Part shown: piece after piece, positions 18,224-58,335 of the stretch
Position numbering within the stretch: position 1 is the first letter of the stretch
Layout of the letters: each line of letters begins with the position of its first letter
Program-made: the position numbers and the translations under genes
Notes under the pieces: model-generated
Database searches by the model: none
What the model saw: only the letters and a program-made list of their open reading frames with translations
What the model was told of the DNA's origin: nothing
Assembly: GCF_024700885.2 (NCBI RefSeq)
Contig: NZ_CP117016.1
Strand: one strand, 5' to 3'
Length of the DNA: 64,000 nt
Source: Escherichia coli
GTDB lineage: Bacteria; Pseudomonadota; Gammaproteobacteria; Enterobacterales; Enterobacteriaceae

Positions 18224-19993
18224 ATGACCCCGGCACTGACTGAAAAACTGGTTGAAACAGCCCGCGCGGCACGTGACGCGGGGCATGGTAAACGCGGTGC
18301 AATATACGACGCTGCCTGTGCTGAACTTGGCATGTCCCGCGCCACTCTGCTGCGCAGGCTGAAGGAGGTATCTGTGACTGATAAACGCAAAAAACGCGCC
18401 GATGCCGGGCGCAGCGCCCTGACCCGCGACGAAGCCGCGCTGATATCTGCCACACTGCGTGAGGCCACCCGCAAGAACGGTAAGCGTCTCTATTCCATCG
18501 CAGATGCAGTGGAAACCCTGCGGGCTAACGGCTTTATCACCGCAGGCAGAACAGATGAAACCACCAGTGAGTTTTTCCCGTTGTCTGAAGATGCCATCAG
18601 CCGTGCTCTGCGTAACTATGGCCTGCACCCGGAACAACTGGATGCCCCTGCACCACATACCGAAGTGGCCAGTCTGCATCCCAATCATGTCTGGCAGATT
18701 GACGCCTCACTCTGCACGCTTTACTACCTGAGCAATGGACATAAAGGGCTGCAGGTGATGGACAGCGCGAAGTTCTACAAGAACAAGCCCGCTAACCTTG
18801 CCCGTATCGCCAGTGACCGCGTGTGGAGTTACGAGATTACCGACCATGCCAGCGGCTGGATTTACGTTGAGTATGTGACGGGCGCGGAATCAGGTGAGAA
18901 CCTGTGTTCTGTGCTTATCAACGCCATGCAGGAGCGTGGCGGCGCAGACGTGCTGCACGGCGTGCCGAAAATACTCTATCTCGACCCCGGCTCGGCAAAC
19001 ACCGCGGGTATGACGAAAAACATGTGCCGCTCACTGGGCATCGACCTGATAGCGCACAAGCCGCATAACGCCCGCGCCACCGGACAGGTGGAAAAGGCGC
19101 GTGACATTATCGAACGCAAGCTGGAGCCGGGTCTGAAGTTCCGGCCGGTTCACAGTCTGGAAGAACTCAACGCGCTGGCCGCGAAATGGCGCAGCCACTT
19201 TAACGCCACGGCTGTTCACAGCCGCCACGGTAAAACCCGCACGGATATCTGGCTGAAGATTACTGCTGAGCAGCTGAAAAAAGCGCCTTCCGTTGAGGTA
19301 TGTCGTGAACTGGCTGTGGCGGCACCAGAACTCCGCAAAGTCACGCCAAAACTTCGTGTCTCGTTCCGGGGCACTGAATTTGACGTATCAACGGTACCGG
19401 GCGTACTGGTTGGTGAAAAACTGATGATTACCCGTAACCCATGGCGCAGCGATGTGGCACAGGTGGTTCTGACCGGTGAGGACGGCCACGAGACGTTCTT
19501 CCTGGTCGAAGAGGTCAGAAAGAACGAGTTTGGCTTTGCTGAAGGCGCGGCGGTATTTGGCGAAAGTTACAAAGCCCTGCCGGAAACCCCGGCACAGATG
19601 GCGGCAAAAGAAACCGAAGCGCTGGTTACCGGTACAGACAACGCCGCAGATGCAGCCGCCGCACGCAAGGCGAAGGCGCTGCCGTTCGGCGGGCGGCTTG
19701 ACCCGTATAAACATATCGACGACACCACACTTCCGGCCTATATGCCGAAGCGTGGTCAGGCCTCTGACGTACGCGGGCCGCGCACTGAACAACGTCCCAT
19801 GACTCATGTGGAGGCCGCGAAAGCCCTGCGCGATAAGTTCAGCGCCGACGGCCTTACCTGGACGCCGGAACATTACCGCCAGTTAACGGCACAGTACCCG
19901 GACGGCGTACCGGAAGCCGCACTGGATGAAGTCATGGCCACGCTGACCACACCGGCCCGCAGCAGTGTTATCAGCATTGTTAACGGCAACTGA
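18224..19993 (+). CDS. DDE transposase (Mu A analogue, integrase-core type)
   Basis: 589 aa; N-terminal HTH, WQIDAS and LYLDPGSANT DDE-type motifs; followed by ATPase partner. Confidence 0.8.
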   Translation: MTPALTEKLVETARAARDAGHGKRGAIYDAACAELGMSRATLLRRLKEVSVTDKRKKRADAGRSALTRDEAALISATLREATRKNGKRLYSIADAVETLRANGFITAGRTDETTSEFFPLSEDAISRALRNYGLHPEQLDAPAPHTEVASLHPNHVWQIDASLCTLYYLSNGHKGLQVMDSAKFYKNKPANLARIASDRVWSYEITDHASGWIYVEYVTGAESGENLCSVLINAMQERGGADVLHGVPKILYLDPGSANTAGMTKNMCRSLGIDLIAHKPHNARATGQVEKARDIIERKLEPGLKFRPVHSLEELNALAAKWRSHFNATAVHSRHGKTRTDIWLKITAEQLKKAPSVEVCRELAVAAPELRKVTPKLRVSFRGTEFDVSTVPGVLVGEKLMITRNPWRSDVAQVVLTGEDGHETFFLVEEVRKNEFGFAEGAAVFGESYKALPETPAQMAAKETEALVTGTDNAADAAAARKAKALPFGGRLDPYKHIDDTTLPAYMPKRGQASDVRGPRTEQRPMTHVEAAKALRDKFSADGLTWTPEHYRQLTAQYPDGVPEAALDEVMATLTTPARSSVISIVNGN

Positions 19994-25099: not shown

Positions 25100-25174
<75 letters not shown>

Positions 25175-25363
25175 GTGAACTTTCTCGTGGAAAAATACGC
25201 GCTGGTGCGTACCGACCAGCCGGGATTCAGCGCCTGTACCCGCTCTCAGTTAATAAACAGCATCGATATCCTCCGGGCTCGCAGGGCGACCGGCCTGATG
25301 ACCCGCGACAATTACAGAACGGTAAATAACATTACCCTGGGTAAGTATCCGGAGGCGAAATGA
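25175..25363 (+). pseudogene. cbtA: 3' fragment of cbtA/ykfI/ypjF-family toxin gene (truncated by prophage insertion)
   Basis: Translation NFLVEKYALVRTDQPGFSA...ILRARRATGLMTRDNYRTVNNITLGK matches my recollection of the CbtA C-terminal half; GTG start with no RBS and in-frame stop 2 codons upstream. Confidence 0.5.
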
Positions 25364-35723: not shown

Positions 35724-36548
35724 TTACTCCAGCGGCATTACCAGCGGATCGGGATACTGGTATTCAAATCCCAGTTCATTACAAATCCGACTGCCATCAA
35801 TAATCTTACCTTTGCCGCTGTCCAGACTATTTCTGAACTGCGGAGGCTCCAGCCCCAGTAAACGGGCCATCTGCGGATAGAAAACATTACGCGCAGGGTG
35901 AGCTGGCGCGCATATATTATAGATGTGTCCGCCTTTAGGTGCCTGTAACAACAGAGTGATAGCGCCAATAACATCTTCTAAATGGACTAAATTAACACCA
36001 TGTTCACCATCAGGCGCGGTTTTTCCGGCAAAGAAGCGTCCGGGATGACGTCCCGGTCCGACCAGCCCCGCAAGACGCAGAATATCGACCGAAGTACCGG
36101 GTAAATTGTGCAGCCAGTCTTCGAGTTCTTCTAATACTCGTCCACTGTTGGTTACCGGATTACGCGGGGTAGTTTCTTTCACCGTGCCTTGCGCGTCGCC
36201 ATAGACAGATGTTGAGCTGGTAAAAATAATGCGGGGAATACGATGGGCCAGCGCGCTATCCACTAACTCTTGTACCGCTTGTAAATAGAACTCATCGCCG
36301 GGGCCGCTACGACGTGCCGGAAGCGTAATGACCAGCGCATCGACATCCATCAGGGCATCCAGATCGTCAGAATCGCAAACTAACTCAGGCTCCATGCGAA
36401 GCAGATAGCTATCAATGCCACTCATTCGGGCCGCTTCGACACCATCTTGTGTGGTTTTACTCCCGGTGACTTGCCAGCCTCGCGCTGAAAGTGACATCGC
36501 CAGCGGCATGCCTAACCACCCTAACCCGACAATTGCGACCTTTTTCAT
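35724..36548 (-). CDS. yeeZ: NAD-dependent epimerase/dehydratase-family protein YeeZ
   Basis: MKKVAIVGLGWLGMPLA Rossmann N-terminus, 274 aa. Confidence 0.8.
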   Translation of the reverse strand: MKKVAIVGLGWLGMPLAMSLSARGWQVTGSKTTQDGVEAARMSGIDSYLLRMEPELVCDSDDLDALMDVDALVITLPARRSGPGDEFYLQAVQELVDSALAHRIPRIIFTSSTSVYGDAQGTVKETTPRNPVTNSGRVLEELEDWLHNLPGTSVDILRLAGLVGPGRHPGRFFAGKTAPDGEHGVNLVHLEDVIGAITLLLQAPKGGHIYNICAPAHPARNVFYPQMARLLGLEPPQFRNSLDSGKGKIIDGSRICNELGFEYQYPDPLVMPLE

Positions 36549-36630
36549 CCGTTATCTCCTGATACACCTTAGATCTATAAGGCTACGCTAGCGTATCAAA
36601 ACTGACAATTCATTCTATGAATGAATCTGT

Positions 36631-36885
36631 TCAATAATGATAACGACATGCTGCAATGAGCAGTGAATCGTCGGTAACCGCGTATACCAGACGGTGCTCC
36701 TCTGTAATGCGTCGGGACCAGAAACCTGACAAATTATGTTTCAGGGGTTCTGGCTTCCCCTTACCTTCAAATGGCGTTCTGCGGGTATCTTTGATAAGTT
36801 CATTGATCTTTTTAACAATTCGCTTATCTGTTTCCTGCCAGTACAGATAATCGTCCCATGATTCCTCAGACCAGATTAGTTTCAC
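36631..36885 (-). CDS. yoeB: toxin YoeB (ribosome-dependent mRNA interferase)
   Basis: 84 aa, recognised sequence; overlaps yefM stop. Confidence 0.85.
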
Positions 36886-37133
36886 TCAATGATGTCCTTT
36901 TCCGTTCCTTTGCCTGATTTCAGGCTATCGATTGAGTCCATCAATCTCCGGGCGTTAGCGGGGGAGCGCAGTAGATAAGCCGTCTCTTCCAGCGAGTTGT
37001 ATTCTTCGAGTGACATCAGAACACAAGCCTCTCCATTCTGACGAGTAATAAGGATCGGGGCATGATCTTCAACGGCTTTCATCATTGTTGCCGACAAATT
37101 CTGACGCGCTTCGCTGTAGCTAATTGTACGCAT
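36882..37133 (-). CDS. yefM: antitoxin YefM
   Basis: [36 protein letters not shown] recognised; start trimmed. Confidence 0.85.
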
Positions 37134-37146
37134 GTCAATCTCCTCT

Positions 37147-37164
37147 TTTGTACAGTTCATTGTA
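37147..37164. promoter_or_regulatory. yefM-yoeB operator (TGTACA repeats)
   Basis: TGTACAgttcatTGTACA immediately upstream of yefM. Confidence 0.6.
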
Positions 37165-37415
37165 CAATGATGAGCGTTAATTAACTATTTATTAATTAGT
37201 TTGTAGATCAAGGTATTGTCAGTGAGACGAAAATCCAGGCTTCGCTATTTTTGGTGCCATCAGCTTAGAGGACAGTCCTCTTAGCCCCCTCCTTTCCCCG
37301 CTCATTCATTAAACAAATCCATTGCCATAAAATATATAAAAAAGCCCTTGCTTTCTAACGTGAAAGTGGTTTAGGTTAAAAGACATCAGTTGAATAAACA
37401 TTCACAGAGACTTTT

Positions 37416-37466
37416 ATGACACGCGTTCAATTTAAACACCACCATCATCACCATCATCCTGACTAG
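37416..37466 (+). CDS. hisL: his operon leader peptide
   Basis: MTRVQFKHHHHHHHPD with seven consecutive His codons. Confidence 0.85.
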   Translation: MTRVQFKHHHHHHHPD

Positions 37467-37528
37467 TCTTTCAGGCGATGTGTGCTGGAAGACATTCAGA
37501 TCTTCCAGTGGTGCATGAACGCATGAGA

Positions 37529-37565
37529 AAGCCCCCGGAAGATCACCTTCCGGGGGCTTTTTTAT
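37529..37565 (+). terminator. his attenuator terminator
   Basis: GCCCCCGGAAG..CTTCCGGGGGC stem followed by TTTTTTT. Confidence 0.8.
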
Positions 37566-37611
37566 TGCGCGGTTGATAACGGTTCAGACAGGTTTAAAGA
37601 GGAATAAGAAA

Positions 37612-38511
37612 ATGACAGACAACACTCGTTTACGCATAGCTATGCAGAAATCCGGCCGTTTAAGTGATGACTCACGCGAATTGCTGGCGCGCTGTGGCAT
37701 TAAAATCAATCTTCACACCCAGCGCCTGATCGCGATGGCAGAAAACATGCCGATTGATATTCTGCGCGTGCGTGACGACGACATTCCCGGTCTGGTAATG
37801 GATGGCGTGGTAGACCTTGGGATTATCGGCGAAAACGTGCTGGAAGAAGAGCTGCTTAACCGCCGCGCCCAGGGTGAAGATCCACGCTACTTTACCCTGC
37901 GTCGTCTGGATTTCGGCGGCTGCCGTCTTTCGCTGGCAACGCCAGTTGATGAAGCCTGGGACGGCCCGCTCTCCTTAAACGGTAAACGTATCGCCACCTC
38001 TTATCCTCACCTGCTCAAGCGTTATCTCGACCAGAAAGGCATCTCTTTTAAATCCTGCTTACTGAACGGTTCTGTTGAAGTCGCCCCGCGTGCCGGACTG
38101 GCGGATGCGATTTGCGATCTGGTTTCCACCGGTGCCACGCTGGAAGCTAACGGCCTGCGCGAAGTCGAAGTTATCTACCGCTCGAAAGCCTGCCTGATCC
38201 AGCGCGATGGCGAAATGGAAGAATCCAAACAGCAACTGATCGACAAACTGCTGACCCGTATTCAGGGTGTGATCCAGGCGCGCGAATCAAAATACATCAT
38301 GATGCACGCACCGACCGAACGTCTGGATGAAGTCATCGCCCTGCTGCCAGGTGCCGAACGCCCAACTATTCTACCGCTGGCGGGTGATCAACAGCGCGTA
38401 GCGATGCACATGGTCAGTAGCGAAACCCTGTTCTGGGAAACCATGGAAAAACTGAAAGCGCTGGGTGCCAGTTCAATCCTGGTCCTGCCGATTGAGAAGA
38501 TGATGGAGTGA
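37612..38511 (+). CDS. hisG: ATP phosphoribosyltransferase
   Basis: [17 protein letters not shown] recognised; start trimmed. Confidence 0.9.
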
Positions 38512-44686: not shown

Positions 44687-44729
44687 AAAAAAAACGGGCA
44701 AGGTGTCACCACCCTGCCCTTTTTCTTTA
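44687..44729. terminator. bidirectional terminator between hisI and wzzB
   Basis: GC-rich hairpin flanked by an A-run on the left and a T-run on the right. Confidence 0.55.
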
Positions 44730-44741
44730 AAACTGCAAAGA

Positions 44742-45722
44742 TTACTTCGCGTTGTAATTACGCAGAGCGTTACGCCCCAACACAATCCCCGCGCCAACCA
44801 TGCCGCCCAGCAGCACTGCCAGAATCAAGGTAATTGCCTTTTTCGGACTATCGCGACGAATAGGTAACGTCGGTTTCATCACATAACGGTAAGCATGAAT
44901 ATCAAGATCATCAACCTTTAAGCTTTCGATATCCAGCAGGTTTTGACGAGTCTGATAGTAGTTTGGCGAGAACACCAACGGACGGGTCGCCTCGTGCTTA
45001 ATCATCGACTCCAGCGCTTCGCTCCCCAAAAGGAACAACGTATCTTGTGTGATATCTTCGCCAGTCTGTTGAATCTGCGGTTTTGTCACCTGCGCCTGAT
45101 TCGCATACTGCAACGCTTCCTGAATCTGACGGATACGCAGATCTTTCTGCTCCTGCGCGACTACTTCCTGCGTTCTTAAAGAGTCCTGCAAGTTTTTCCG
45201 TCCCAGAGCAATGTTGTCTTTGAGATCCTTTTCTAGCTCTTGATTCACTTTATCGTCAACTTGCTGAATGTATTGGGCCAACTTCATTTGTGCGCCCTCT
45301 GCAGTTTGCCCAACATAAGAAACAGTCAATGGTAATTGCTGGTTCTTAACAGAAGGTTCGATGGTAAGTTTTTCTCGTTCTTCCTGATTATCCAGCGTTT
45401 CTGCTAATGCAGAGAAGGCAGAACTGAAGCGACCAATTAACGTCTCCTGCAAATCCGATACTTTCGGTGCAGCCTGACCATAGATAACATTCATGGCATT
45501 GTTATAGCCAGCAATTTGCCCCACGTCGGGCTGAGTGATAATTGCTGTTGACGTCCATTTCTCCTTCGCTACTGCCAAATATCCAATAGCCAGGGCAATA
45601 GCCACAATGACGGAAATGATGATTGTCATCTTGCCACGCCACAACTGCACTAGTAAATCAATCAAATCAATCTGTTCCGGGTCATGGTTTTGCCCAGAAA
45701 CATTATTATTTTCTACTCTCAT
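44742..45722 (-). CDS. wzzB: O-antigen chain length determinant (Wzz/Cld)
   Basis: MRVENNNVSGQNHDPEQIDLIDLL recognised; TM helices at both ends. Confidence 0.85.
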   Translation of the reverse strand: MRVENNNVSGQNHDPEQIDLIDLLVQLWRGKMTIIISVIVAIALAIGYLAVAKEKWTSTAIITQPDVGQIAGYNNAMNVIYGQAAPKVSDLQETLIGRFSSAFSALAETLDNQEEREKLTIEPSVKNQQLPLTVSYVGQTAEGAQMKLAQYIQQVDDKVNQELEKDLKDNIALGRKNLQDSLRTQEVVAQEQKDLRIRQIQEALQYANQAQVTKPQIQQTGEDITQDTLFLLGSEALESMIKHEATRPLVFSPNYYQTRQNLLDIESLKVDDLDIHAYRYVMKPTLPIRRDSPKKAITLILAVLLGGMVGAGIVLGRNALRNYNAK

Positions 45723-45867
45723 CATTACCCTAACTGACGGAAATTTCCAAGTCCGCATAGTTTAGCGATAATCCTCGTGAATGCTATAGGATAAGTGATA
45801 AAAATAATGAATTGTTGTGTAAGTAACAAAAGACAATCAGGGCGTAAATAGCCCTGATAACAAGATG

Positions 45868-47043
<1,176 letters not shown>

Positions 47044-47282
47044 TCAGAATTAACTTAACTGTGAATCATGATGTTTTTAGCATCCTGATAAGAGCTAAAA
47101 GTTTTAACGCTACGTTGTTCGATGGTCAACGCAACGAAAAACAATTCAGATTTTCTTTATAAGAATAGCTGATATTTATTAAGTTAATATTAAGCAGTGA
47201 AATTTAGTCTATAAGATATTTGGCAAAAAAAAGCCCGGTGCAATATACGCCGGGCCTCAATTTTATTGTTGGTTAAATCAGA

Positions 47283-48689
47283 TTAATCCAGCCATTCGGT
47301 ATGGAACACACCTTCTTTATCAATACGCTTATAAGTATGCGCACCAAAATAGTCACGCTGTGCCTGGATCAGGTTCGCAGGCAGAACAGCAGCACGGTAG
47401 CTGTCGTAATAGGCAACCGCTGCGGAGAAGGTCGGAACCGGAATACCGTTCTGTACTGCATAAGCAACGACATCACGCAGCGCCTGCTGGTAGTCATCGG
47501 CAATTTGCTTGAAGTACGGAGCCAGCAGCAGGTTAGCGATCTGCGGATTTTCGGCATAAGCATCGGTGATTTTCTGCAGGAACTGCGCACGGATGATGCA
47601 GCCAGCACGGAAAATCTTCGCGATTTCGCCGTAGTTCAGATCCCAGTTGTACTCTTCAGACGCAGCACGCAGCTGAGAGAAGCCCTGGGCGTAAGAAACG
47701 ATTTTGCCCAGATACAGCGCACGACGAACTTTTTCGATGAACTCAGCCTTGTCGCCTGCTGGCTGTGCTTGCGGACCAGAGAGAACTTTAGATGCGGCAA
47801 CACGCTGATCTTTCAGAGAAGAGATATAACGTGCAAACACAGACTCGGTAATCAGCGACAGCGGTTCGCCGAGATCCAGCGCGCTCTGGCTGGTCCATTT
47901 ACCGGTACCTTTGTTAGCCGCTTCATCCAGGATCACATCAACCAGGTAGTTACCGTCTTCATCTTTTTTGGTGAAGATATCTTTGGTGATGTCGATCAGG
48001 TAACTGCTCAGTTCACCGTTATTCCACTCGGTAAAGGTCTGCGCCAGTTCTTCGTTGGTGAGGTTCAGGCCACCTTTAAGCAGAGAATAGGCTTCAGCAA
48101 TCAGTTGCATATCACCGTATTCGATACCGTTGTGAACCATCTTCACATAATGGCCTGCGCCATCGGCACCAATATAGGTAACGCATGGCTCCCCGTCTTC
48201 AGCTACTGCGGCGATTTTGGTCAGGATTGGTGCAACCAGTTCATAGGCTTCTTTCTGCCCACCAGGCATAATAGAAGGACCTTTCAGCGCGCCTTCTTCA
48301 CCACCGGAGACACCGGTACCAATGAAGTTAAAGCCTTCGGCAGAAAGTTCACGGTTACGACGAATGGTGTCCTGGAAGAAGGTATTGCCACCATCAATGA
48401 TGATGTCACCTTTATCGAGATATGGTTTGAGGGAATCAATAGCAGCATCCGTGCCTGCACCTGCTTTCACCATTAACAGGATGCGACGAGGCGTTTCCAG
48501 AGATTCAACAAACTCTTTCACCGTATAGTAAGGAACCAGTTTCTTGCCTGGATTTTCGGCAATCACTTCTTCCGTCTTTTCACGGGAACGGTTGAAAATA
48601 GAGACGGTATAACCACGGCTTTCGATGTTGAGCGCAAGGTTGCGCCCCATCACTGCCATACCGACTACGCCGATCTGTTGCTTTGACAT
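47283..48689 (-). CDS. gnd: 6-phosphogluconate dehydrogenase (decarboxylating)
   Basis: [21 protein letters not shown], 468 aa. Confidence 0.9.
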
Positions 48690-48806
48690 TGTTTACTCCT
48701 GTCAGGGGGTGGTCACCGCGCAAGATATGCGCAGCTTGAAATATGGTATGGATGTTAACTCAGGTTTAGCTTGGGTAGATAGCAGAAGATGTACTTTAGA
48801 CAAGCA

Positions 48807-49205
48807 TCACACGAACGATTTTGCAAAAGAAGGGTCAAATGGCCCCTCCTTAACTTCCACCATAAGAGCACGCGGAGATAGGCATTCGACACTGTGTATA
48901 TCGCCCGGAGAAAACTCCACAATGCTCATTCCAGTATTATCTCCTGCTATAAATTGCTTTATAACCTCACCATTTCTACCATACAAACAAACCTGAAGTT
49001 GCCCCTCCATAACAATGAACATTTCCCACTGATGAGGAAGTTCGTGATAATGCGGTTCAACATAGCTGCCCTTTACTAATGCAATAAGTAAACGCTGTAC
49101 CTTTTCTTGATGCGAGCCGTGCATCATAAGGTGGGAACGTAAACGTTCCGATTGCCCGGCTTGATCATATAATTCGTCGAGTTGGTCATTATCAATTAAT
49201 CGCAT
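48807..49205 (-). CDS. wbuC: WbuC-like cupin protein of L-FucNAc O-antigen clusters
   Basis: 132 aa, last gene before gnd, overlapping the upstream GT stop. Confidence 0.5.
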   Translation of the reverse strand: MRLIDNDQLDELYDQAGQSERLRSHLMMHGSHQEKVQRLLIALVKGSYVEPHYHELPHQWEMFIVMEGQLQVCLYGRNGEVIKQFIAGDNTGMSIVEFSPGDIHSVECLSPRALMVEVKEGPFDPSFAKSFV

Positions 49206-50406
49206 TGCATGCCTCCAACCTCATTTCTATCGTCTGTGCCGCAGACTCAACGGAGAATTGTTCTTTCAACAATATATTCGCCCCCGAACCAAGTTGCCGG
49301 CGCACATCAATATCATGCAACATTAATAGCGCAGATTGACATAATTTATCGTCCTCACCATTGACATGGATTAATCCCGCATTATTTTGATTGACAATGT
49401 CGAGCAAATCATTTCCGGCATTTACGCTACCTAAAATAGGTAGCGACTGAACCATATAGCCTAATAACTTACCAGGAAAATTATGGGAAGAGTGTCTAGC
49501 GGAAAGAGAAAACAAGCCGATATCCATTTCCGACAAAATGAACTTAAATTCATCTTGGTTAACCGAGGGCAAATAGGTGAAATTCGTCAATGCCCACTCA
49601 GATGCTAATGAATTAATTAATTCAACTTCATCCCCCTGGCCAATAAATAGGAAATGAGCTTGAGGATATGCTGCCATGTTTCTCACAAGTCGCATCAAGT
49701 TTGTCATGTCCTGTGCATGACCTATGTTTCCACCATAGAAGAAAATGGTTTTATCCTCTAGGCCAAGTCGCTTACGTAGTGGTATATAATCCTTGGGTAT
49801 GATCGTTGGTGTTAGGGATGCCCAATTACGCAAAACTTCGCACGGATAGCCTTTATTATCTTTCCGAAAAACATCAAGATTCTTATCAGACATAAGTCCA
49901 ATACGATTTGCCTGACGATAAGATATTTTTTCAAAAAGACGAAAGTAGCGTTCTATTGGGGAACCAGCATTAAGCATTCCTGCATCAATTACCCATTGTG
50001 GAAACATATCTCTTAAAATAAGATAAGCAGGACATTGGCAACGAGCTTTAATTTTTTTAACTAAAGGCCCCCAGAATATGGAAGGTGAATAATAAATCAC
50101 CCCCTCAAAGGTCTCTTTTTTTACCCATTTTTTGATGGCTTTCCACGCCCGATAGGACAAAAGCGTTTCATTGACCGCTCGCTGAATTTTACTTACATCC
50201 TTGAGCGGCCCGCTTTTAAAACGCCATGTTTTTACCCCCTGAAAGGTATCAAAAGAAATCTCTTCTTGCATGCCCGTACCAGGAGTAATTACCGTAACAT
50301 CGTGCCCACGCTGGATAAATTCTTGAGCAAGTTCATGAAACATTTTTGCACCAACACGAGTACTGTTGGGCAGGTAATCATCTATGATTAAAGCAAGTTT
50401 CATCAA
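49192..50406 (-). CDS. wbuB: glycosyltransferase family 4 (putative L-FucNAc transferase WbuB-like)
   Basis: 404 aa directly after fnlC. Confidence 0.65.
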   Translation of the reverse strand: MMKLALIIDDYLPNSTRVGAKMFHELAQEFIQRGHDVTVITPGTGMQEEISFDTFQGVKTWRFKSGPLKDVSKIQRAVNETLLSYRAWKAIKKWVKKETFEGVIYYSPSIFWGPLVKKIKARCQCPAYLILRDMFPQWVIDAGMLNAGSPIERYFRLFEKISYRQANRIGLMSDKNLDVFRKDNKGYPCEVLRNWASLTPTIIPKDYIPLRKRLGLEDKTIFFYGGNIGHAQDMTNLMRLVRNMAAYPQAHFLFIGQGDEVELINSLASEWALTNFTYLPSVNQDEFKFILSEMDIGLFSLSARHSSHNFPGKLLGYMVQSLPILGSVNAGNDLLDIVNQNNAGLIHVNGEDDKLCQSALLMLHDIDVRRQLGSGANILLKEQFSVESAAQTIEMRLEACNAIN

Positions 50407-51533
50407 TATTCTTTCCAGACGACTCTCTTAACATAATCTGTGTAAGAGTGAACAATTCTGACAACTTTATCCGACACATTTGGCATGCTGTAATCACTAA
50501 CCTGACGTAAAAGACGGACTTCACCTCGCGGTTGTGTTGCCAGAATATCCAGCGCTTGTAATACGCGTTCACACTCTAACCCCACCATCATGACGGATGC
50601 TTCCTCAAAGCCTTCCGGACGCTCATGCGCTTCCCGGATGTTTACCGCTGGGAAATTCATGATGGATGACTCTTCAGTGATAGTACCGCTATCTGAAAGC
50701 ACAGCTCGTGAGTTCTTCTGCAAGTGGTTATAATCATGGAAACCCAATGGTTTCAGTAGATTTATATTTGAATGAAATTCAATTCCTTGCTCACGGATTC
50801 GGTTACGTGTCCTTGGGTGTGTGGAGACAATAACTGGAAGATTATATTTTTCAGCAACAGTATTTAGAATGTTCGCAAGCTTTACGAGCTGTTTTGGAGA
50901 ATCAACATTCTCTTCACGATGCGCACTTACTACAAAAAACTCACCAGACTGTAGATTCAAACGCGATAGCACATCTGAACCATCAATTTGGGGCATATAA
51001 TATGAAAGAACCTCAAACATAGGGCTACCAGTTTTTATGATCCGATCAGCTGGGATACCTTCAGCCAAGAGATATTCACGAGCAATATCACTGTAGGTCA
51101 TATTGATATCAGCCGTATGGTCAACAATACGTCTGTTGGTTTCTTCAGGCACGCGTTGATCGAAACAACGGTTACCTGCTTCCATATGAAATATAGGCAC
51201 TTTACGGCGTTTGGCCGGAATGGCAGAAATACATGAATTCGTATCGCCCAATACCAGTATTGCTTCAGGTTTTTCGATTTCTAATACTTCATCTACCTTA
51301 ATAATAACCTGACCAATGGTTTCCGCCGCATTTTTACCCGCTGCATTTAAAAAATAATCAGGTTTTCGAACACCCAAGTCATTGAAGAACACTTCATTTA
51401 ATTCGTAATCATAATTTTGACCAGTATGGACAATAATATGCTCGCAGTATTCATCAAACTTAGCAAGAACCCTCGACAAACGGATAATCTCAGGACGGGT
51501 TCCAACAACAGACATAACTTTTAATTTTTTCAT
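50403..51533 (-). CDS. fnlC: UDP-N-acetylglucosamine 2-epimerase (FnlC)
   Basis: 376 aa non-hydrolysing 2-epimerase signature. Confidence 0.8.
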   Translation of the reverse strand: MKKLKVMSVVGTRPEIIRLSRVLAKFDEYCEHIIVHTGQNYDYELNEVFFNDLGVRKPDYFLNAAGKNAAETIGQVIIKVDEVLEIEKPEAILVLGDTNSCISAIPAKRRKVPIFHMEAGNRCFDQRVPEETNRRIVDHTADINMTYSDIAREYLLAEGIPADRIIKTGSPMFEVLSYYMPQIDGSDVLSRLNLQSGEFFVVSAHREENVDSPKQLVKLANILNTVAEKYNLPVIVSTHPRTRNRIREQGIEFHSNINLLKPLGFHDYNHLQKNSRAVLSDSGTITEESSIMNFPAVNIREAHERPEGFEEASVMMVGLECERVLQALDILATQPRGEVRLLRQVSDYSMPNVSDKVVRIVHSYTDYVKRVVWKEY

Positions 51534-52636
51534 TATAGAGGTCTCGCAATAGTATCGGGCTCATCACGGTTGAAAATTTCATTTGCCCAGAGCATGACTA
51601 TTAATTCATCAGTTCCAATATTTGTAATGTCATGTGTCCAACCAGGAACTGTTTCAACAATCTTAAACTCACCCGATGAAACTTTCAGTTCATATCGCTC
51701 ACCGGTAATCACATGTTCAAATTTAAAGCATGCCTGACCTCGAATGACCAAAAACTTCTCATTTTTACTGTGATGGTAATGTCCGCCACGCGTAATACCA
51801 GGGTGAGCAGTAAAAAATGAAAACTGCCCCGCTGAAGGCGTTTTCAACATCTCACAAAAGACTCCGCGGGCATCCCCATAAAAAGGTACCTTGTACGCAA
51901 ACTTCTCTGCTGGTAAATAACTCAGCCATGTAGAATACAATGCACGGGTAAATCCCGCCCCGACAGCCTCTGTGATCAGGGTGGAACGGCTATTTTTGAA
52001 GCTATAAATTAATTCTGCAACTTCACCAACTGTTGTTGAATAAATTGGTGCAACAACTTTATATCCACTTTCAACCGTCCCAGAGAGAAGAGCTATAGCA
52101 TCAGTACAAACATCATCAATATAGACCAGATTGACTGGCGCTGCTGCATCATTGATAGTAATCTCAATATCATTGGAAATATTGTAGCAAAAAGTTGCTA
52201 TAAAAGAATTATAGTTTGGCTTACACCATTTACCAAAAACGTTTGGATATCTGAAAATATAATACGAAGAACCACTAGCAGCAGCATATTTTTCGACATA
52301 GCTTTCAGCTACAGCTTTGCTAACCCCATAAGCATTATTAAGTTCAGCTTGTATCGAAGAACTTAGCATAATTGGTGTATTCTTACCAATAGAAAGGAGA
52401 TACTCAACTATATGCTTTGTTAAATCACTGTTTCCAGAAATAAACTCATCATCAGTCTTAGGTCTATTGATACCAGCTAAGTGATAAATAAAATCGGCAT
52501 CCTGTAAGCCTTGTTCAAGATCTTGCTTCGTTGATTCTCGATCAATTCTAATAAGATCTTTATAACCAAGTTCCTCAAGCCTCAAACATAAATTACGACC
52601 AATAAAACCATTTGCACCAGTAACTAATATTTTCAT
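51533..52636 (-). CDS. fnlB: FnlB-like reductase/epimerase (Cap5F-like)
   Basis: MKILVTGANGFIG Rossmann start; track ORF trimmed. Confidence 0.75.
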   Translation of the reverse strand: MKILVTGANGFIGRNLCLRLEELGYKDLIRIDRESTKQDLEQGLQDADFIYHLAGINRPKTDDEFISGNSDLTKHIVEYLLSIGKNTPIMLSSSIQAELNNAYGVSKAVAESYVEKYAAASGSSYYIFRYPNVFGKWCKPNYNSFIATFCYNISNDIEITINDAAAPVNLVYIDDVCTDAIALLSGTVESGYKVVAPIYSTTVGEVAELIYSFKNSRSTLITEAVGAGFTRALYSTWLSYLPAEKFAYKVPFYGDARGVFCEMLKTPSAGQFSFFTAHPGITRGGHYHHSKNEKFLVIRGQACFKFEHVITGERYELKVSSGEFKIVETVPGWTHDITNIGTDELIVMLWANEIFNRDEPDTIARPL

Positions 52637-52637
52637 A

Positions 52638-53672
52638 TCATGAATCCAGATTATATTTTTCACCAGCACGAATTGCTCGAATAAAGGCTAATTTTAGCAA
52701 GAGCTCTTTCATGCCTTCAACATCTAACCGTTGAGTATTATGAGAGTTATAATCTTCTATTTCAGATATTCGGCTATCACCTTGCTCAACATATTTGCCA
52801 TAATTAAGGTCACGAAGATCTGGCGGGACACGGTAATAATCGCCCATATCTATAGCAGCGATCATTTCCTCACGACTAAGTAGAGCTTCATATAATTTCT
52901 CGCCATGACGCGTTCCAATGACATTTACCGGATGGTCAGGAACATTTAGTAATTCCTTTAAAGCAATAGCTAATGTGTCAATAGTTGCTGCAGGTGCTTT
53001 TTGCACAAAGATATCACCATTATTACCATGTTCAAACGCATAAAGAACTAAATCTACCGCATCCTCAAGAGTCATCATAAAGCGGGTCATATTAGGATCA
53101 GTTATTGTGAGTGGCTTGCCCGCTCTAATAAGATCAACAAATAATGGAATAACTGAACCGCGAGATGCCATAACATTCCCATAACGGGTACCACATATTA
53201 CTGTTTTATTGCGATCAACATTACGGGATTTCGCGACCATGACCTTTTCCATCATAGCTTTTGAAATACCCATTGCGTTAATCGGGTATACAGCTTTATC
53301 AGTACTTAGGCATACAACCCTCTTCACTTCATTCGCTATAGCTGCTTCAAGAACATTTTCCGTACCAAGGATATTAGTTTTAACGGCTTCCATAGGATGA
53401 AATTCACATGATGGAACTTGCTTAAGTGCCGCTGCATGATATATAAAATCAACACCGCGAGTCGCATTCAAAATACTACGGTAATCTCTGACATCACCAA
53501 TATAGAACTTTAATTTTTGATTATTGTATTTTTTCCGCATATCATCTTGTTTTTTTTCATCACGACTAAATATACGGATTTCTGCAATATCTGTATCAAG
53601 AAATCTATTTAATACAGCATTCCCGAAAGAGCCAGTACCACCAGTAATTAACAGTGTTTTAGATGAAAACAT
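52638..53672 (-). CDS. fnlA: UDP-GlcNAc 4,6-dehydratase/5-epimerase (FnlA/CapE-like)
   Basis: TGGTGSFG motif, 344 aa. Confidence 0.85.
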   Translation of the reverse strand: MFSSKTLLITGGTGSFGNAVLNRFLDTDIAEIRIFSRDEKKQDDMRKKYNNQKLKFYIGDVRDYRSILNATRGVDFIYHAAALKQVPSCEFHPMEAVKTNILGTENVLEAAIANEVKRVVCLSTDKAVYPINAMGISKAMMEKVMVAKSRNVDRNKTVICGTRYGNVMASRGSVIPLFVDLIRAGKPLTITDPNMTRFMMTLEDAVDLVLYAFEHGNNGDIFVQKAPAATIDTLAIALKELLNVPDHPVNVIGTRHGEKLYEALLSREEMIAAIDMGDYYRVPPDLRDLNYGKYVEQGDSRISEIEDYNSHNTQRLDVEGMKELLLKLAFIRAIRAGEKYNLDS

Positions 53673-53713
53673 AATAACCGAACCTCAAATCATTGACAAA
53701 TATACTCTGGAAG

Positions 53714-54892
53714 CTATTTACTTACTTGACCTAACTTATTAGTAATTGAACTCTGTCCACTAAGTGTTACTCTATTCAAAAACATATATATAAAAGATAG
53801 AAAGAAATAGCCGTTAGATCCTAAAACTAAACCTTTGGTATTGAAAATTATCCCAATTAACATCCATATAATTGCTTGATATGTCATTCCAAATGTCGCA
53901 ATAGAAATAGTAAAGATTAAAAATAAAAAGAGTGTAATAAATGTTAACCCACCGTAATTAAACAGTATAACCCAGCCCATATCCGAACTTTGTTTAATAT
54001 CGGGGATTGATGAAGATATGTTTTGCTGTAATCCAAATATAATATTAAAAAAATCTAAATTACCTACAACAAACACATGTTGCTGTAATAAGATATCCAG
54101 AGTTCTTGTGCCATCTCCAGAAACGAACTCATCATAAAATCGAGGAAAGAACACTGCTCCTAAGCTATAAACTAAAACTCCCAAAATCAATACTGTTGCA
54201 ATTTTTATATTAATATTAAGTCTAGAGCAACCGATACCAATAATGGCTGCAATCACAGCCATGTTAGAATTTACGATTTGAGTCAGACAAATTAAAGTAA
54301 TTAAAGCATAACGCCTTTTCATCATAAAAAATGACATATAGATCATCAAAAATGGTGTCATGAAATTTATTTCACCCGACAACCCAAATCCTCTTACTTT
54401 AGCATTTTGTTCCCAAAGATTAACAGAGTCAGACATACCAAAGAAAGTATATAACAATCTTTTTAACTCTGGACTTATATACATACCAAAAAAAATAACT
54501 ATTTGAACCCAGAGAGAATACACTAATATTCGCTCCATTAATTTCAAGTCACCCTTTATGAATCTATTTACTAAATAATACGCAGGAACAAATGAAAATA
54601 AAAACAACATAAATAATCTAACGGTAAAATAACTTTGAAAAGAATGGCTTTTTTGAAACAAATCGAAAACCAAACAAAATAAAAAAATAATTATGAATAT
54701 AGATAACAGCAACAAATTTTTACGATCTATAGATACCAATCCATTGCCCATAGTAATCATAAAATTACGCACTAAATACATAATACCAAAAAATGCAGGA
54801 ATAAATGCCAAATATAAGAAAGGTATTATCAGCGACAATCTAAAAAAAACAACAAAAAATAATAAAAAAGCCATCAATGCATTATACTTCAT
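53714..54892 (-). CDS. wzy: O-antigen polymerase (Wzy-like)
   Basis: 392 aa polytopic membrane protein, very AT-rich gene. Confidence 0.55.
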   Translation of the reverse strand: MKYNALMAFLLFFVVFFRLSLIIPFLYLAFIPAFFGIMYLVRNFMITMGNGLVSIDRKNLLLLSIFIIIFLFCLVFDLFQKSHSFQSYFTVRLFMLFLFSFVPAYYLVNRFIKGDLKLMERILVYSLWVQIVIFFGMYISPELKRLLYTFFGMSDSVNLWEQNAKVRGFGLSGEINFMTPFLMIYMSFFMMKRRYALITLICLTQIVNSNMAVIAAIIGIGCSRLNINIKIATVLILGVLVYSLGAVFFPRFYDEFVSGDGTRTLDILLQQHVFVVGNLDFFNIIFGLQQNISSSIPDIKQSSDMGWVILFNYGGLTFITLFLFLIFTISIATFGMTYQAIIWMLIGIIFNTKGLVLGSNGYFFLSFIYMFLNRVTLSGQSSITNKLGQVSK

Positions 54893-54941
54893 TGTTTTTT
54901 ACCTTCCATACAAATGTCTTAATAAATGAAGATAGCATCAT

Positions 54942-55928
54942 CTATATATACCAGTTCTTAAGCAAATCATCTGTTTTTGAGGTGCCACGCTCTCCAATAC
55001 CATGTATATATGCCGAAATCAACACATATCTGTAAAGAATTGGGAAATAGAGTTTTTTATTTGCATCTGTTTTTTTTAAAAATTGTATTATTTTTTTAAA
55101 AATAAATTTATTGAAAAATATTGATTGGCATATTTTACTAAACGTTTTGTGTTTACTAAATATTTTCTCAACTAGGAATAATTTTTTATTAGTAGAAAAC
55201 ATTTCAGGCCTTACTTTGCTTAATACATTCATACCATCACGTGCTGTAGCACGAATTTTTTTTGTATATCCTTCTATATCGCCACTGTATTCGTGATGTA
55301 ATATTTTAAAATCAGCAAAAATAATTTTGAAGTCATTTTTTTCAAGTTGCCACCCAAACTCATGATCTTCACAACCATAACCAATAAAATTTTCATTATA
55401 TGAAACTATACCTGATGAAAATGCCTTTCTATCAAGAACACAATTCATTGCGACAAAAGTCCAGGCATTCATAGAGATATCAGGACTATCACTAAACTTA
55501 GGGTGTAAAGAGTTCCTGTAGCGATAGTAATTGCTGGTCTCAATGAGTTCATTTTCGAATCTAACTTCCCCACATAAAACGCTTTTACTATTCATTTTTT
55601 TTAAATAGTTCAGCAACGATGATATATATCCACTTGCGGGTATACAATCATCATCAAGAAATATTAAATAATCCCCATGGGCTAGGGATGCTCCGAAATT
55701 GCGCTTAGCGGAGAGTATATTTTTAGTATGTTGATGGATAATATTAATATTTTTCTTTTTATGAATATTATCAGCAACTACATCATCAATTTCTTTACCA
55801 CTATGACTATCGGAAACAATTACTTCTAGGTGTAGACTATTGTCTTTAGCCTGAGAATCGAGCTCAGAGAGAATCAATTCTAATTGAACTGGGCGTTTCC
55901 AAACAGATATTATTACCGAGATATTCAT
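54942..55928 (-). CDS. glycosyltransferase family 2
   Basis: 328 aa, LIFLDDDCIP DxD region. Confidence 0.7.
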   Translation of the reverse strand: MNISVIISVWKRPVQLELILSELDSQAKDNSLHLEVIVSDSHSGKEIDDVVADNIHKKKNINIIHQHTKNILSAKRNFGASLAHGDYLIFLDDDCIPASGYISSLLNYLKKMNSKSVLCGEVRFENELIETSNYYRYRNSLHPKFSDSPDISMNAWTFVAMNCVLDRKAFSSGIVSYNENFIGYGCEDHEFGWQLEKNDFKIIFADFKILHHEYSGDIEGYTKKIRATARDGMNVLSKVRPEMFSTNKKLFLVEKIFSKHKTFSKICQSIFFNKFIFKKIIQFLKKTDANKKLYFPILYRYVLISAYIHGIGERGTSKTDDLLKNWYI

Positions 55929-57169
55929 AATTTATGAGGCCTACATACGGTTTTATTTACTTTAATGAATTGTTTAAGCATTCCCATGCCAACGAAAATT
56001 TCAGCTACAATAAGACTCACAATCGCACCCGTTGCTCCATAATATTTACATGCTGGATAAACTATGCTTAAACAAGTAATAGTTCCTAGGAAAATAGATT
56101 TGAAATACTGTTTTTGCATCCCATTAGGTACTAATACAAGTAACCCGACAACTGTATTAAAACCTATGAATATAGGAAGCAATGTCATTAATTGCATTGC
56201 ACCTGCAATTACTTCACCTTTCATGCCGAATATTAATAATGATAATTGGTTGGCAAAAAGTAAAAATGGTATTGCTAAAGCCATGTAAAAAACAAGCAAG
56301 TATTTAAGAATCATTCTAGATTTTAAGTTTGCAATATATGGATTCTCTCTTTGCAAAATGTTAATTCTTGGATAAAAAGCTTGGACTAATGGTGATGCAA
56401 GTCCAGCCAAACCTTGTTTGATCATGTTAGCTGAGTTAAAGATGCCTACATCAAACTTTCCAGATACGCCACCCAATACAAGAGGGGTCAACATTGTGTA
56501 TGCACTAGTCGCAAGTGTTGAACAAAAAAAATGAAATCCATTTTTTAAAATTACTTGAATTTTCTTTATCGGTGGCCTACATAAAAAAATCTCCTTGATA
56601 ATAAGTAAGTAGGCAACGCCACAGAATGAATACAAAATATATGGCATGCTCAATAATAAGGCACTGATGTACATCGGCGTTGCGGGTTTTATAATTAGAT
56701 AAACTGCAACGACTGCTATGCCTCGTGAAAATAGTGACAGCACAGCCATCACACTCATCATTTCCTTACCTTGCAAAAACCAATTTGGATTGAAAACACC
56801 TGCAATTACGGACAGAAAACCAACACATAACAAAGACTTAACGTCGTTAAAAACATAAAAAAAACAGAGTATTATGAGTATTATAGCTGCAATTAGCATT
56901 AATATAAAACGAGCAAGCACCACACCGCAAAAAAATTCAGAATGGTATTTTTTATCGTTATTTAGTGCTATTTCTCTTGTCCCACTATATCCAAAACCAT
57001 ATTCAACAACCATTAACAACACTTGTATAGTTATCAATGAAAAACTCAGATCACCAAAATTCGATACACCAATGACTCTAACAAGATAAGGAAAAATTAA
57101 TAATGGCAGTAGGTAATTGGCACCCTGACTTATTGCAAGGTAAAGAACATTTAGTTTAGTTTTGCTCAA
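55925..57169 (-). CDS. wzx: O-antigen flippase (Wzx)
   Basis: 414 aa, 12-TM polysaccharide exporter; first gene of the cluster. Confidence 0.75.
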   Translation of the reverse strand: MSKTKLNVLYLAISQGANYLLPLLIFPYLVRVIGVSNFGDLSFSLITIQVLLMVVEYGFGYSGTREIALNNDKKYHSEFFCGVVLARFILMLIAAIILIILCFFYVFNDVKSLLCVGFLSVIAGVFNPNWFLQGKEMMSVMAVLSLFSRGIAVVAVYLIIKPATPMYISALLLSMPYILYSFCGVAYLLIIKEIFLCRPPIKKIQVILKNGFHFFCSTLATSAYTMLTPLVLGGVSGKFDVGIFNSANMIKQGLAGLASPLVQAFYPRINILQRENPYIANLKSRMILKYLLVFYMALAIPFLLFANQLSLLIFGMKGEVIAGAMQLMTLLPIFIGFNTVVGLLVLVPNGMQKQYFKSIFLGTITCLSIVYPACKYYGATGAIVSLIVAEIFVGMGMLKQFIKVNKTVCRPHKL

Positions 57170-57237
57170 TGAAGTGCCCCATATACAACAGATATCATTC
57201 GAGTAACTTATTCACATGAATCAATAAGTTGTTTATT

Positions 57238-58335
57238 CAGGGCAAGATTACGAAAGCCCGCTCCCCGCAAGAACTGACGCCAGATAGTTTCTGTCCATGG
57301 CTGCTTTTCGCATCTTACGTCTTAACCCTGCCTTGAATACCTTATCATTCGTCAAAATATTAATAGCAATGTGCCGTATCCCTGAAAATAAATCTGCTGC
57401 ATTTCCTCTTCTTATTTTGCAGTCGTCTTCATTCATTACCACGTCCAGACGCCAGTGCAGCTTATTCTCCACGTGCCAGTGGTTTCGGATTGCTGTGGCG
57501 AACTTCTCTGCGGTTAAATCAGCAGAACTGATATAATATCTGACCGTCATTTCTGGCTCTTTCTTTTGTTCTGCTATTATTGACCGAAAGGAGACTGCCA
57601 CGCATAATTTCTTCAGACCTTTCCATTCAAACGTGAAATCAAAAAGTTCATCAGGGACATCGCAAACAATATGAAGACGGATTTCGTCTCTGCCGTGACT
57701 CTTTTCACTCATTGCGTAACTGTCATGCTCTGGATTATTTAATTCTTTCAGTGGAAATTTTTCCTCAAAGGCTTTATTAAGCCGCCCCTGATTTCCTTTT
57801 ACAGCGAATAAATAATCACCGCCCTGTTTTTGTATCTTCTCTGCAATATCTTTCTGGCAACCCATCGCATCAGTTGTGATGATTTTTCCTTTAATATCCA
57901 GCATGTTAAGAAGTTCAGGGATAGCTGTAATTTCATTGGATTTCTCATCCGTCCTGATCTGTCCGATGACCAGACTGTGCATTGTTGAGAACGCACTAAT
58001 GACATGAATCGCTCCCTTGCGGCGACTCTTGTCATAAGAATGCCGGAGTGTTTTTCCATCAATTGCGATGAAGTCTTTATCATCTGAAGAATGGCAGTCA
58101 CGCATCCAGTTAATAAAGCACTCGTGAAATTTTGCAGGACTGATACAGGATACAACTCTGGCAATGGTATCGTGAACAGGAATACCATTTTCAAAATCAC
58201 CATATTGCTTCAAAAAATCGAGATGTGTTTCCCCAAAATCCTCTATATCTTCCCAGCCTTCTGCACCCGAAATAACGGCACAAATAGTCAACAGTAGAAT
58301 ATCCGACAATTTATGTTCCACTTTCCAGGCTTGTC
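57238..58335 (-). mobile_element. ISAs1-family (H-repeat-like) element, outer copy body, interrupted at 58335 by a nested copy
   Basis: Begins with CAGGGCAAGATTACG terminus; 1097-bp periodicity with the next copy; the missing 5' part reappears at 59626-59829. Confidence 0.75.
57248..58321 (-). pseudogene. ISAs1-family transposase lacking its first ~20 codons (split by nested IS)
   Basis: About 95% identical by eye to the intact downstream copy; N-terminal codons found at 59626-59685. Confidence 0.7.

Follow-up and report, generated by a model that had tools for sequence, protein, structure and literature searches.

A 64-kb stretch of Escherichia coli DNA (the window) carries, between yeeZ and hisL, a pair of short overlapping genes that raise the question of whether this strain holds a complete copy of the toxin-antitoxin system yefM-yoeB and what such a copy may do there. 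Over 25 kb, the window matches E. coli MLI114 (NZ_CP117013.1), a human stool isolate from Mali, with 100% identity, and the RefSeq annotation of the identical MLI114 sequence names the two genes yoeB and yefM. Judging by its sequence, the module is almost certainly yefM-yoeB, the type II toxin-antitoxin operon of the E. coli chromosome, intact and with the same sequence as the experimentally studied copy of K-12. The coding part consists of the following features:

36882..37133, minus strand: yefM, 83 amino acids, ATG at 37133-37131; antitoxin and autorepressor, with the start as in PMC1802561
36882..36885, minus strand: the yefM-yoeB overlap GTGA, 4 nt, in which the yoeB GTG start lies over the yefM TGA stop
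36631..36885, minus strand: yoeB, an open reading frame (ORF) of 84 amino acids, GTG start and TGA stop (36633-36631); ribosome-dependent mRNA endonuclease toxin

The two genes lie on the same strand in the order antitoxin and then toxin (yefM, 37133-36882; yoeB, 36885-36631). At their junction, the minus strand reads AAAGGACATCATTGAGTGAAACTAATC, with YefM ending in ATT GAG TGA and YoeB beginning with GTG AAA CTA, and this arrangement suggests that translation of yoeB is probably coupled to that of yefM through the GTGA overlap. Two plus-strand ORFs within the module (64 and 41 amino acids) are mechanical, with nothing to support them.

Both proteins are those for which structures are available, and the description of the locus as a known system stands on the structural matches and the family models as well as on the RefSeq labels. 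YefM is 100% identical to residues 4-86 of PDB 2A6Q chain A, retains R10 and R31, and scores well above the cut-offs of PF02604 (PhdYeFM_antitox; 96.8 bits, cut-off 29.8) and of the equivalog model NF008499 (186.6 bits, cut-off 121), with TIGR01552 also matched. YoeB is 100% identical over residues 1-84 to 2A6Q chain E and also to the YoeB of the ribosome complexes 4V8X and 6OTR; it scores 146.3 bits against PF06769 (YoeB_toxin; cut-off 27) and 132.8 bits against the equivalog model TIGR02116 (cut-off 51.8), and it additionally matches ParE_toxin and, weakly and below threshold, the RelE/StbE and YafQ models. All of the mRNA-contacting or catalytic residues of YoeB are kept (E46, R59, E63, R65, H83, and Y84), the roles of Glu46, Arg59, Glu63, Arg65, His83, and Tyr84 having been described in PMC3814384. 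Ribosome-dependent cleavage of mRNA in the A site was shown experimentally for the identical K-12 YoeB (PMC3814384, PMC6821326), and from this identity we infer that the YoeB of this strain would likewise cleave A-site mRNA and be toxic on expression.

To compare the locus with K-12 at the nucleotide level, we took positions 2084000-2092000 of MG1655 and aligned 868 bp (36549-37416 of the window), bounded by the start codons of yeeZ and hisL. The alignment contains no gaps and a single substitution, at 37266 (T here and A in K-12), so that the two sequences are identical over 36549-37265. The substitution lies between yefM and hisL, 113 nt upstream of the yefM transcription start, and touches neither of the two genes, nor the operator, nor the promoter. 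Because there is no gap and the sole substitution is intergenic, the module is intact and equals the K-12 module at the nucleotide level. A frameshift revealed by careful alignment, which the first-pass annotation had named beforehand as refuting its claim of intact overlapping genes, was not found in these 868 bp, and both ORFs occupy the coordinates it gave, with the 4-nt overlap and with proteins identical to those of 2A6Q. The possibility that this is a decayed or inactive copy (a pseudogene, or a module with a broken operator) is exceedingly improbable and is refuted at the sequence level, since neither an indel nor a substitution relative to K-12 falls in the genes, operator, or promoter and the proteins are the same as the crystallized ones. 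Nothing in the sequence speaks against identification as the intact E. coli operon.

The regulatory region permits an equally direct comparison, as each feature mapped on K-12 can be placed on the window:

37187-37182, minus strand: -35 hexamer TAGTTA of the promoter pyy, sequence as in PMC7730913
37181-37165, minus strand: 17-bp spacer, length as in PMC7730913
37157..37170, no strand: L (long) palindrome TCATTGTACAATGA, perfect over 14 bp, the primary YefM site, covering the -10 box; same as the footprinted L repeat of PMC1802561
37164-37159, minus strand: -10 hexamer TACAAT of pyy, sequence as in PMC7730913
37160, minus strand: unused ATG at -7 (PMC1802561)
37149..37154, no strand: S (short) palindrome TGTACA, which holds +1 (footprinting and S-repeat mutagenesis in PMC1802561; PMC7730913)
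37153, minus strand: transcription start, +1 = G (mapping on K-12 in PMC7730913 and PMC1802561)
37140..37146, minus strand: Shine-Dalgarno sequence AGAGGAG of yefM, 6 nt upstream of the ATG
37133, minus strand: yefM start, ATG at +21 (PMC1802561)

In K-12, Kedzierska et al. (PMC1802561) footprinted YefM and the YefM-YoeB complex on the L repeat and on the S repeat with its TGTACA core, 12 bp apart, and PMC7730913 describes the promoter as having a -10 box of TACAAT, a -35 box of TAGTTA, a 17-bp linker, and a G at +1, with L spanning the entire -10 box and S enclosing the start site. The centers of L and S in the window are likewise 12.0 bp apart. Every published regulatory feature is present in this sequence, in register and unchanged, and the operator, predicted to be autoregulatory from its identity with the footprinted K-12 operator, overlaps the promoter. 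The claim of a TGTACA-repeat operator was thus borne out base for base by the experimentally mapped operator (PMC1802561, PMC7730913): TGTACA-N6-TGTACA lies at 37149-37166 and, with one mismatch allowed, occurs only there in the 64-kb window, for which shuffled sequences give an expectation of 0.09; the distal TGTACA forms the center of the L palindrome. The extent assigned to the module in the first-pass annotation runs from 36631, the final base of the yoeB stop codon, to 37170, the outer edge of the long palindrome, and the -35 box (37187-37182) falls 12 to 17 bp beyond that end.

The operator region also settles where yefM begins. The longest mechanical ORF for yefM has 92 amino acids and starts at ATG 37160, which corresponds to the -7 ATG described as unused (PMC1802561); because that codon precedes the mapped transcription start, we rejected the 92-amino-acid form and take ATG 37133, at +21 and with the published ribosome-binding site 6 bp away (PMC1802561), as the true start. 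A generic scan for sigma-70 promoters and terminators over 36400-37500 did not call the real pyy promoter and called no terminator for the module. The promoter escaped the scan because just 3 of the 6 bases of its -35 box agree with the consensus, in keeping with pyy having been described as weak in the literature. The same scan returned one promoter-like and one terminator-like match within yoeB, on the plus strand, neither exceeding the expectation from shuffled sequences, and we attribute both to chance.

Comparison with related systems places the module with its K-12 counterpart. The MG1655 operon (b2017/b4539; PDB 2A6Q, 4V8X, and 6OTR) has the same proteins, genes, overlap, ribosome-binding site, L and S repeats, -10 and -35 boxes, and transcription start, and it occupies the same yeeZ/hisL site, the gene order yeeY-yeeZ-yoeB-yefM-hisL-hisG being common to K-12, the window, and MLI114. 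What differs from K-12 is the substitution at 37266 and the background, which here is that of MLI114, with an O15 antigen cluster and a Mu-like prophage in cbtA. The axe-txe system of the Enterococcus faecium plasmid pRUM belongs to homologous families (Phd/YefM and Txe/YoeB; TIGR02116) and, like the module, carries a pair of TGTACA palindromes spaced by 12 bp, with TACAAT again as the -10 box (PMC7730913). However, its L repeat is located in the promoter spacer and its -35 box is TTGCTT, giving a far stronger and only partly repressed promoter (PMC7730913), whereas in the window L lies over the -10 box and S over the start site, as in K-12 pyy. RelBE, DinJ-YafQ, and HigBA, whose toxins are RelE-superfamily ribosome-dependent mRNases, share the toxin fold and the A-site mRNA cleavage of YoeB but have antitoxins of other families and other operators; unlike them, YoeB works as a dimer and retains both members of the Glu/His acid-base pair (PMC3814384, PMC6821326). 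The antitoxin of phd-doc of phage P1 falls in the same Phd/YefM family (TIGR01552, PF02604), but its toxin, Doc, is an unrelated Fic-fold kinase and not an RNase. The yefM-yoeB module described here is therefore already known, well studied, and wholly ordinary, with nothing unusual in its sequence, and it has little significance past its correct annotation.

Given this identity, we infer the function of the module in this strain wholly from work on the identical K-12 sequence. A single weak sigma-70 promoter (TAGTTA, 17 bp, TACAAT) would give rise to a bicistronic mRNA starting at G 37153, and a YefM dimer would bind one YoeB and thereby neutralize it. YefM would occupy L over the -10 box first and then S over the start site, and the YefM2-YoeB complex, which would be far more avid on L and S, would block RNA polymerase and shut the operon down. 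In K-12, such autorepression was seen in reporter activity, which YefM lowered about 5.5-fold and YefM-YoeB brought down to background (PMC1802561); YefM is the primary repressor and YoeB the corepressor, and as a complex they mask the -10 box together with the start site (PMC1802561, PMC7730913). When YefM is degraded in a Lon-dependent manner, YoeB would be freed as a dimer and enter the ribosomal A site, where it would cleave the mRNA within the A-site codon, past its second nucleotide, Glu46 acting as the general base and His83 as the general acid with help from Arg65 and Tyr84, and translation would stop as a result of the cleavage. The ribosome structures and catalytic mechanism of YoeB are given in PMC3814384 and PMC6821326, and Lon-dependent loss of YefM has been observed when Lon is overproduced and at 42°C (PMC7167474, citing Christensen 2004 and Janssen 2015); the protease Lon is encoded outside the window. 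The K-12 results on YoeB toxicity, YefM repression, and activation by Lon or heat should carry over directly to a strain with this wild-type module. According to the review PMC7167474, YoeB activation and cleavage are induced at 42°C, yet without a measurable effect on growth or fitness; because of this, we use “functional” for the module to mean biochemically competent, not demonstrably useful.

Whether the module is useful to its host can be considered against its distribution in the species, for which we searched the 540-bp module as a query in 5,426 complete E. coli genomes. It was matched in 4,216 of them, always on the chromosome and with 97.6 to 100% identity, and in 4,211 at no less than 80% coverage, so that about 78% of complete genomes have the module and about 22% are without it. 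The flanks of the module were found in essentially all 5,426 genomes. Genomes without the module include O157:H7 strain PV15-279 and the B-strain derivative BAP1, which have 210 bp of unrelated filler at the same site, and alignment to these two genomes delimits the accessory segment:

36626..37277, no strand: whole cassette, 652 bp, between the yeeZ upstream and hisL upstream regions (alignment to O157:H7 PV15-279 and BAP1)

The junctions are sharp, with identity to PV15-279 and BAP1 extending to 36625, five bases beyond the stop codon of yoeB, and returning at about 37278. The filler is present at full length in 1,197 of the 5,426 genomes; cassette and filler together account for 5,408 genomes (4,211 + 1,197), and the site therefore has a two-allele polymorphism. 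By its motif, the filler looks like a pair of inverted REP elements (REP/BIME-like), a label that draws also on partial, roughly 82%-identical second-site matches of the filler in other genomes. A REP-type consensus derived from the filler had no match in the window with up to 3 mismatches. The cassette has a GC content of 44.2%, compared with 49.8% for the window and 52 to 54% for yeeZ and hisG, in line with the usual view that chromosomal toxin-antitoxin loci are small accessory insertions.

Since about one-fifth of complete genomes do without it, the module is dispensable in E. coli, and the polymorphism serves as a reminder of its accessory nature. It is quite possible that the cassette, while intact in sequence, is selfish and neutral, kept by addiction or anti-addiction together with vertical descent and conferring no stress-response benefit on the host. 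The clean alternation of cassette and filler at one site and the GC content below that of the surroundings point in this direction, as does the report of no yefM-yoeB fitness effect at 42°C despite induced cleavage (PMC7167474). Against this, carriers nearly always have the module at full length, with only 5 of the 4,216 matching less than 80% of it, which suggests maintenance, although addiction would give the same pattern. In any case, a selfish or neutral existence concerns the role of the module and not what it is, and it is compatible with our identification of an intact yefM-yoeB operon. In one of the five partial carriers, NZ_LR883000.1, only the yefM part (query positions 224-540) is contiguous and the record has matches in two places, and such partial matches suggest rare disrupted copies in which yoeB has been interrupted.

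Toxin-antitoxin loci are generally known to be unevenly spread among E. coli lineages, and for this reason the cassette/filler polymorphism is probably not new. Should it be undescribed so far, there is a slim chance that the two alleles and their junctions could reveal in what way a minimal toxin-antitoxin cassette entered or left the yeeZ-hisL intergenic region.

The window contains a second toxin gene, cbtA, next to which the first-pass annotation had placed the module:

25172-25363: cbtA fragment, annotated in RefSeq as “missing N-terminus”

The gene is indeed truncated, its remnant translation covering only positions 63-112 of the 112-position CbtA_toxin model, but some 15 annotated genes and about 11.3 kb separate it from yoeB, so that the two loci are not adjacent. 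On its left, cbtA is cut by a Mu-like transposable prophage that extends from before about 7500 to about 25171 and encodes a DDE transposase with an rve core (18224-19993), an ExeA-family protein, Gam, and Mor, while its holin, SLT, and portal genes are on the opposite strand, early and late genes diverging from a central control region. This divergence had raised the suspicion of a rearranged prophage. Some Mu-like phages (BcepMu type) naturally have such a divergent layout of early and late genes, and we set the suspicion aside on that ground. The arrangement over 20000-44999 is common to only 3 of the 5,426 genomes. The intact yefM-yoeB provides a useful internal contrast to the truncated cbtA of the same window.

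Some type II toxin-antitoxin systems defend against phage, and a Mu-like prophage lies 11 kb from the module. On these grounds, one might view yefM-yoeB as mainly an anti-phage (abortive infection) system or a system directed against mobile elements, which we consider very unlikely here: neither YefM nor YoeB matches any of 5,027 PADLOC defense models, the module is neither inside nor beside the prophage, and thousands of genomes have it at the same conserved yeeZ-hisL site whatever their prophage content.

Two hairpins lie at the edges of the cassette. The one at 37263-37285 has an 11-bp stem with arms GCTAAGAGGAC and GTCCTCTTAGC in K-12, and the T at 37266, the only base that differs from K-12, mismatches one pair; on the minus strand, its minimum free energy is -13.4 kcal/mol here versus -17.5 kcal/mol in K-12. 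It straddles the right edge of the cassette, with the left arm in the cassette and the right arm in the conserved flank, and is followed by no T-run. The other, an AT-rich hairpin at 36601-36635 on the minus strand with the core AUUCAUUC-AUA-GAAUGAAU, overlaps the stop codon of yoeB and directly precedes UUUU. An 81-nt stretch that includes it folds better than shuffled sequences (z = -2.9), and its shortage of G-C pairs explains why the terminator scan passed over it; most of the hairpin lies in the flank that cassette-less genomes also keep.

On the other side of the intergenic region is the start of the histidine operon. The leader peptide of hisL, MTRVQFKHHHHHHHPD, and the attenuator of the His leader lie within 37417-37565, divergent from yefM-yoeB as in K-12, and gene order onward from hisL is hisGDCBHAFI, again as in K-12. 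At a permissive threshold over 36000-38000, an Rfam search passed only this leader, and no RNA family was located within the module or antisense to it; all other matches lay on the hairpins of the his attenuator and fell far short of their gathering scores.

37442-37565: His leader, RF00514, 131.6 bits (Rfam)

Downstream of the his operon, at about 44700-57500, the window continues with wzzB, ugd, gnd, and an O-antigen cluster. This cluster is annotated with O15-family wzx and wzy as well as fnlA-wbjC-wecB of the L-FucNAc pathway, and it ends in a truncated ISAs1 transposase.
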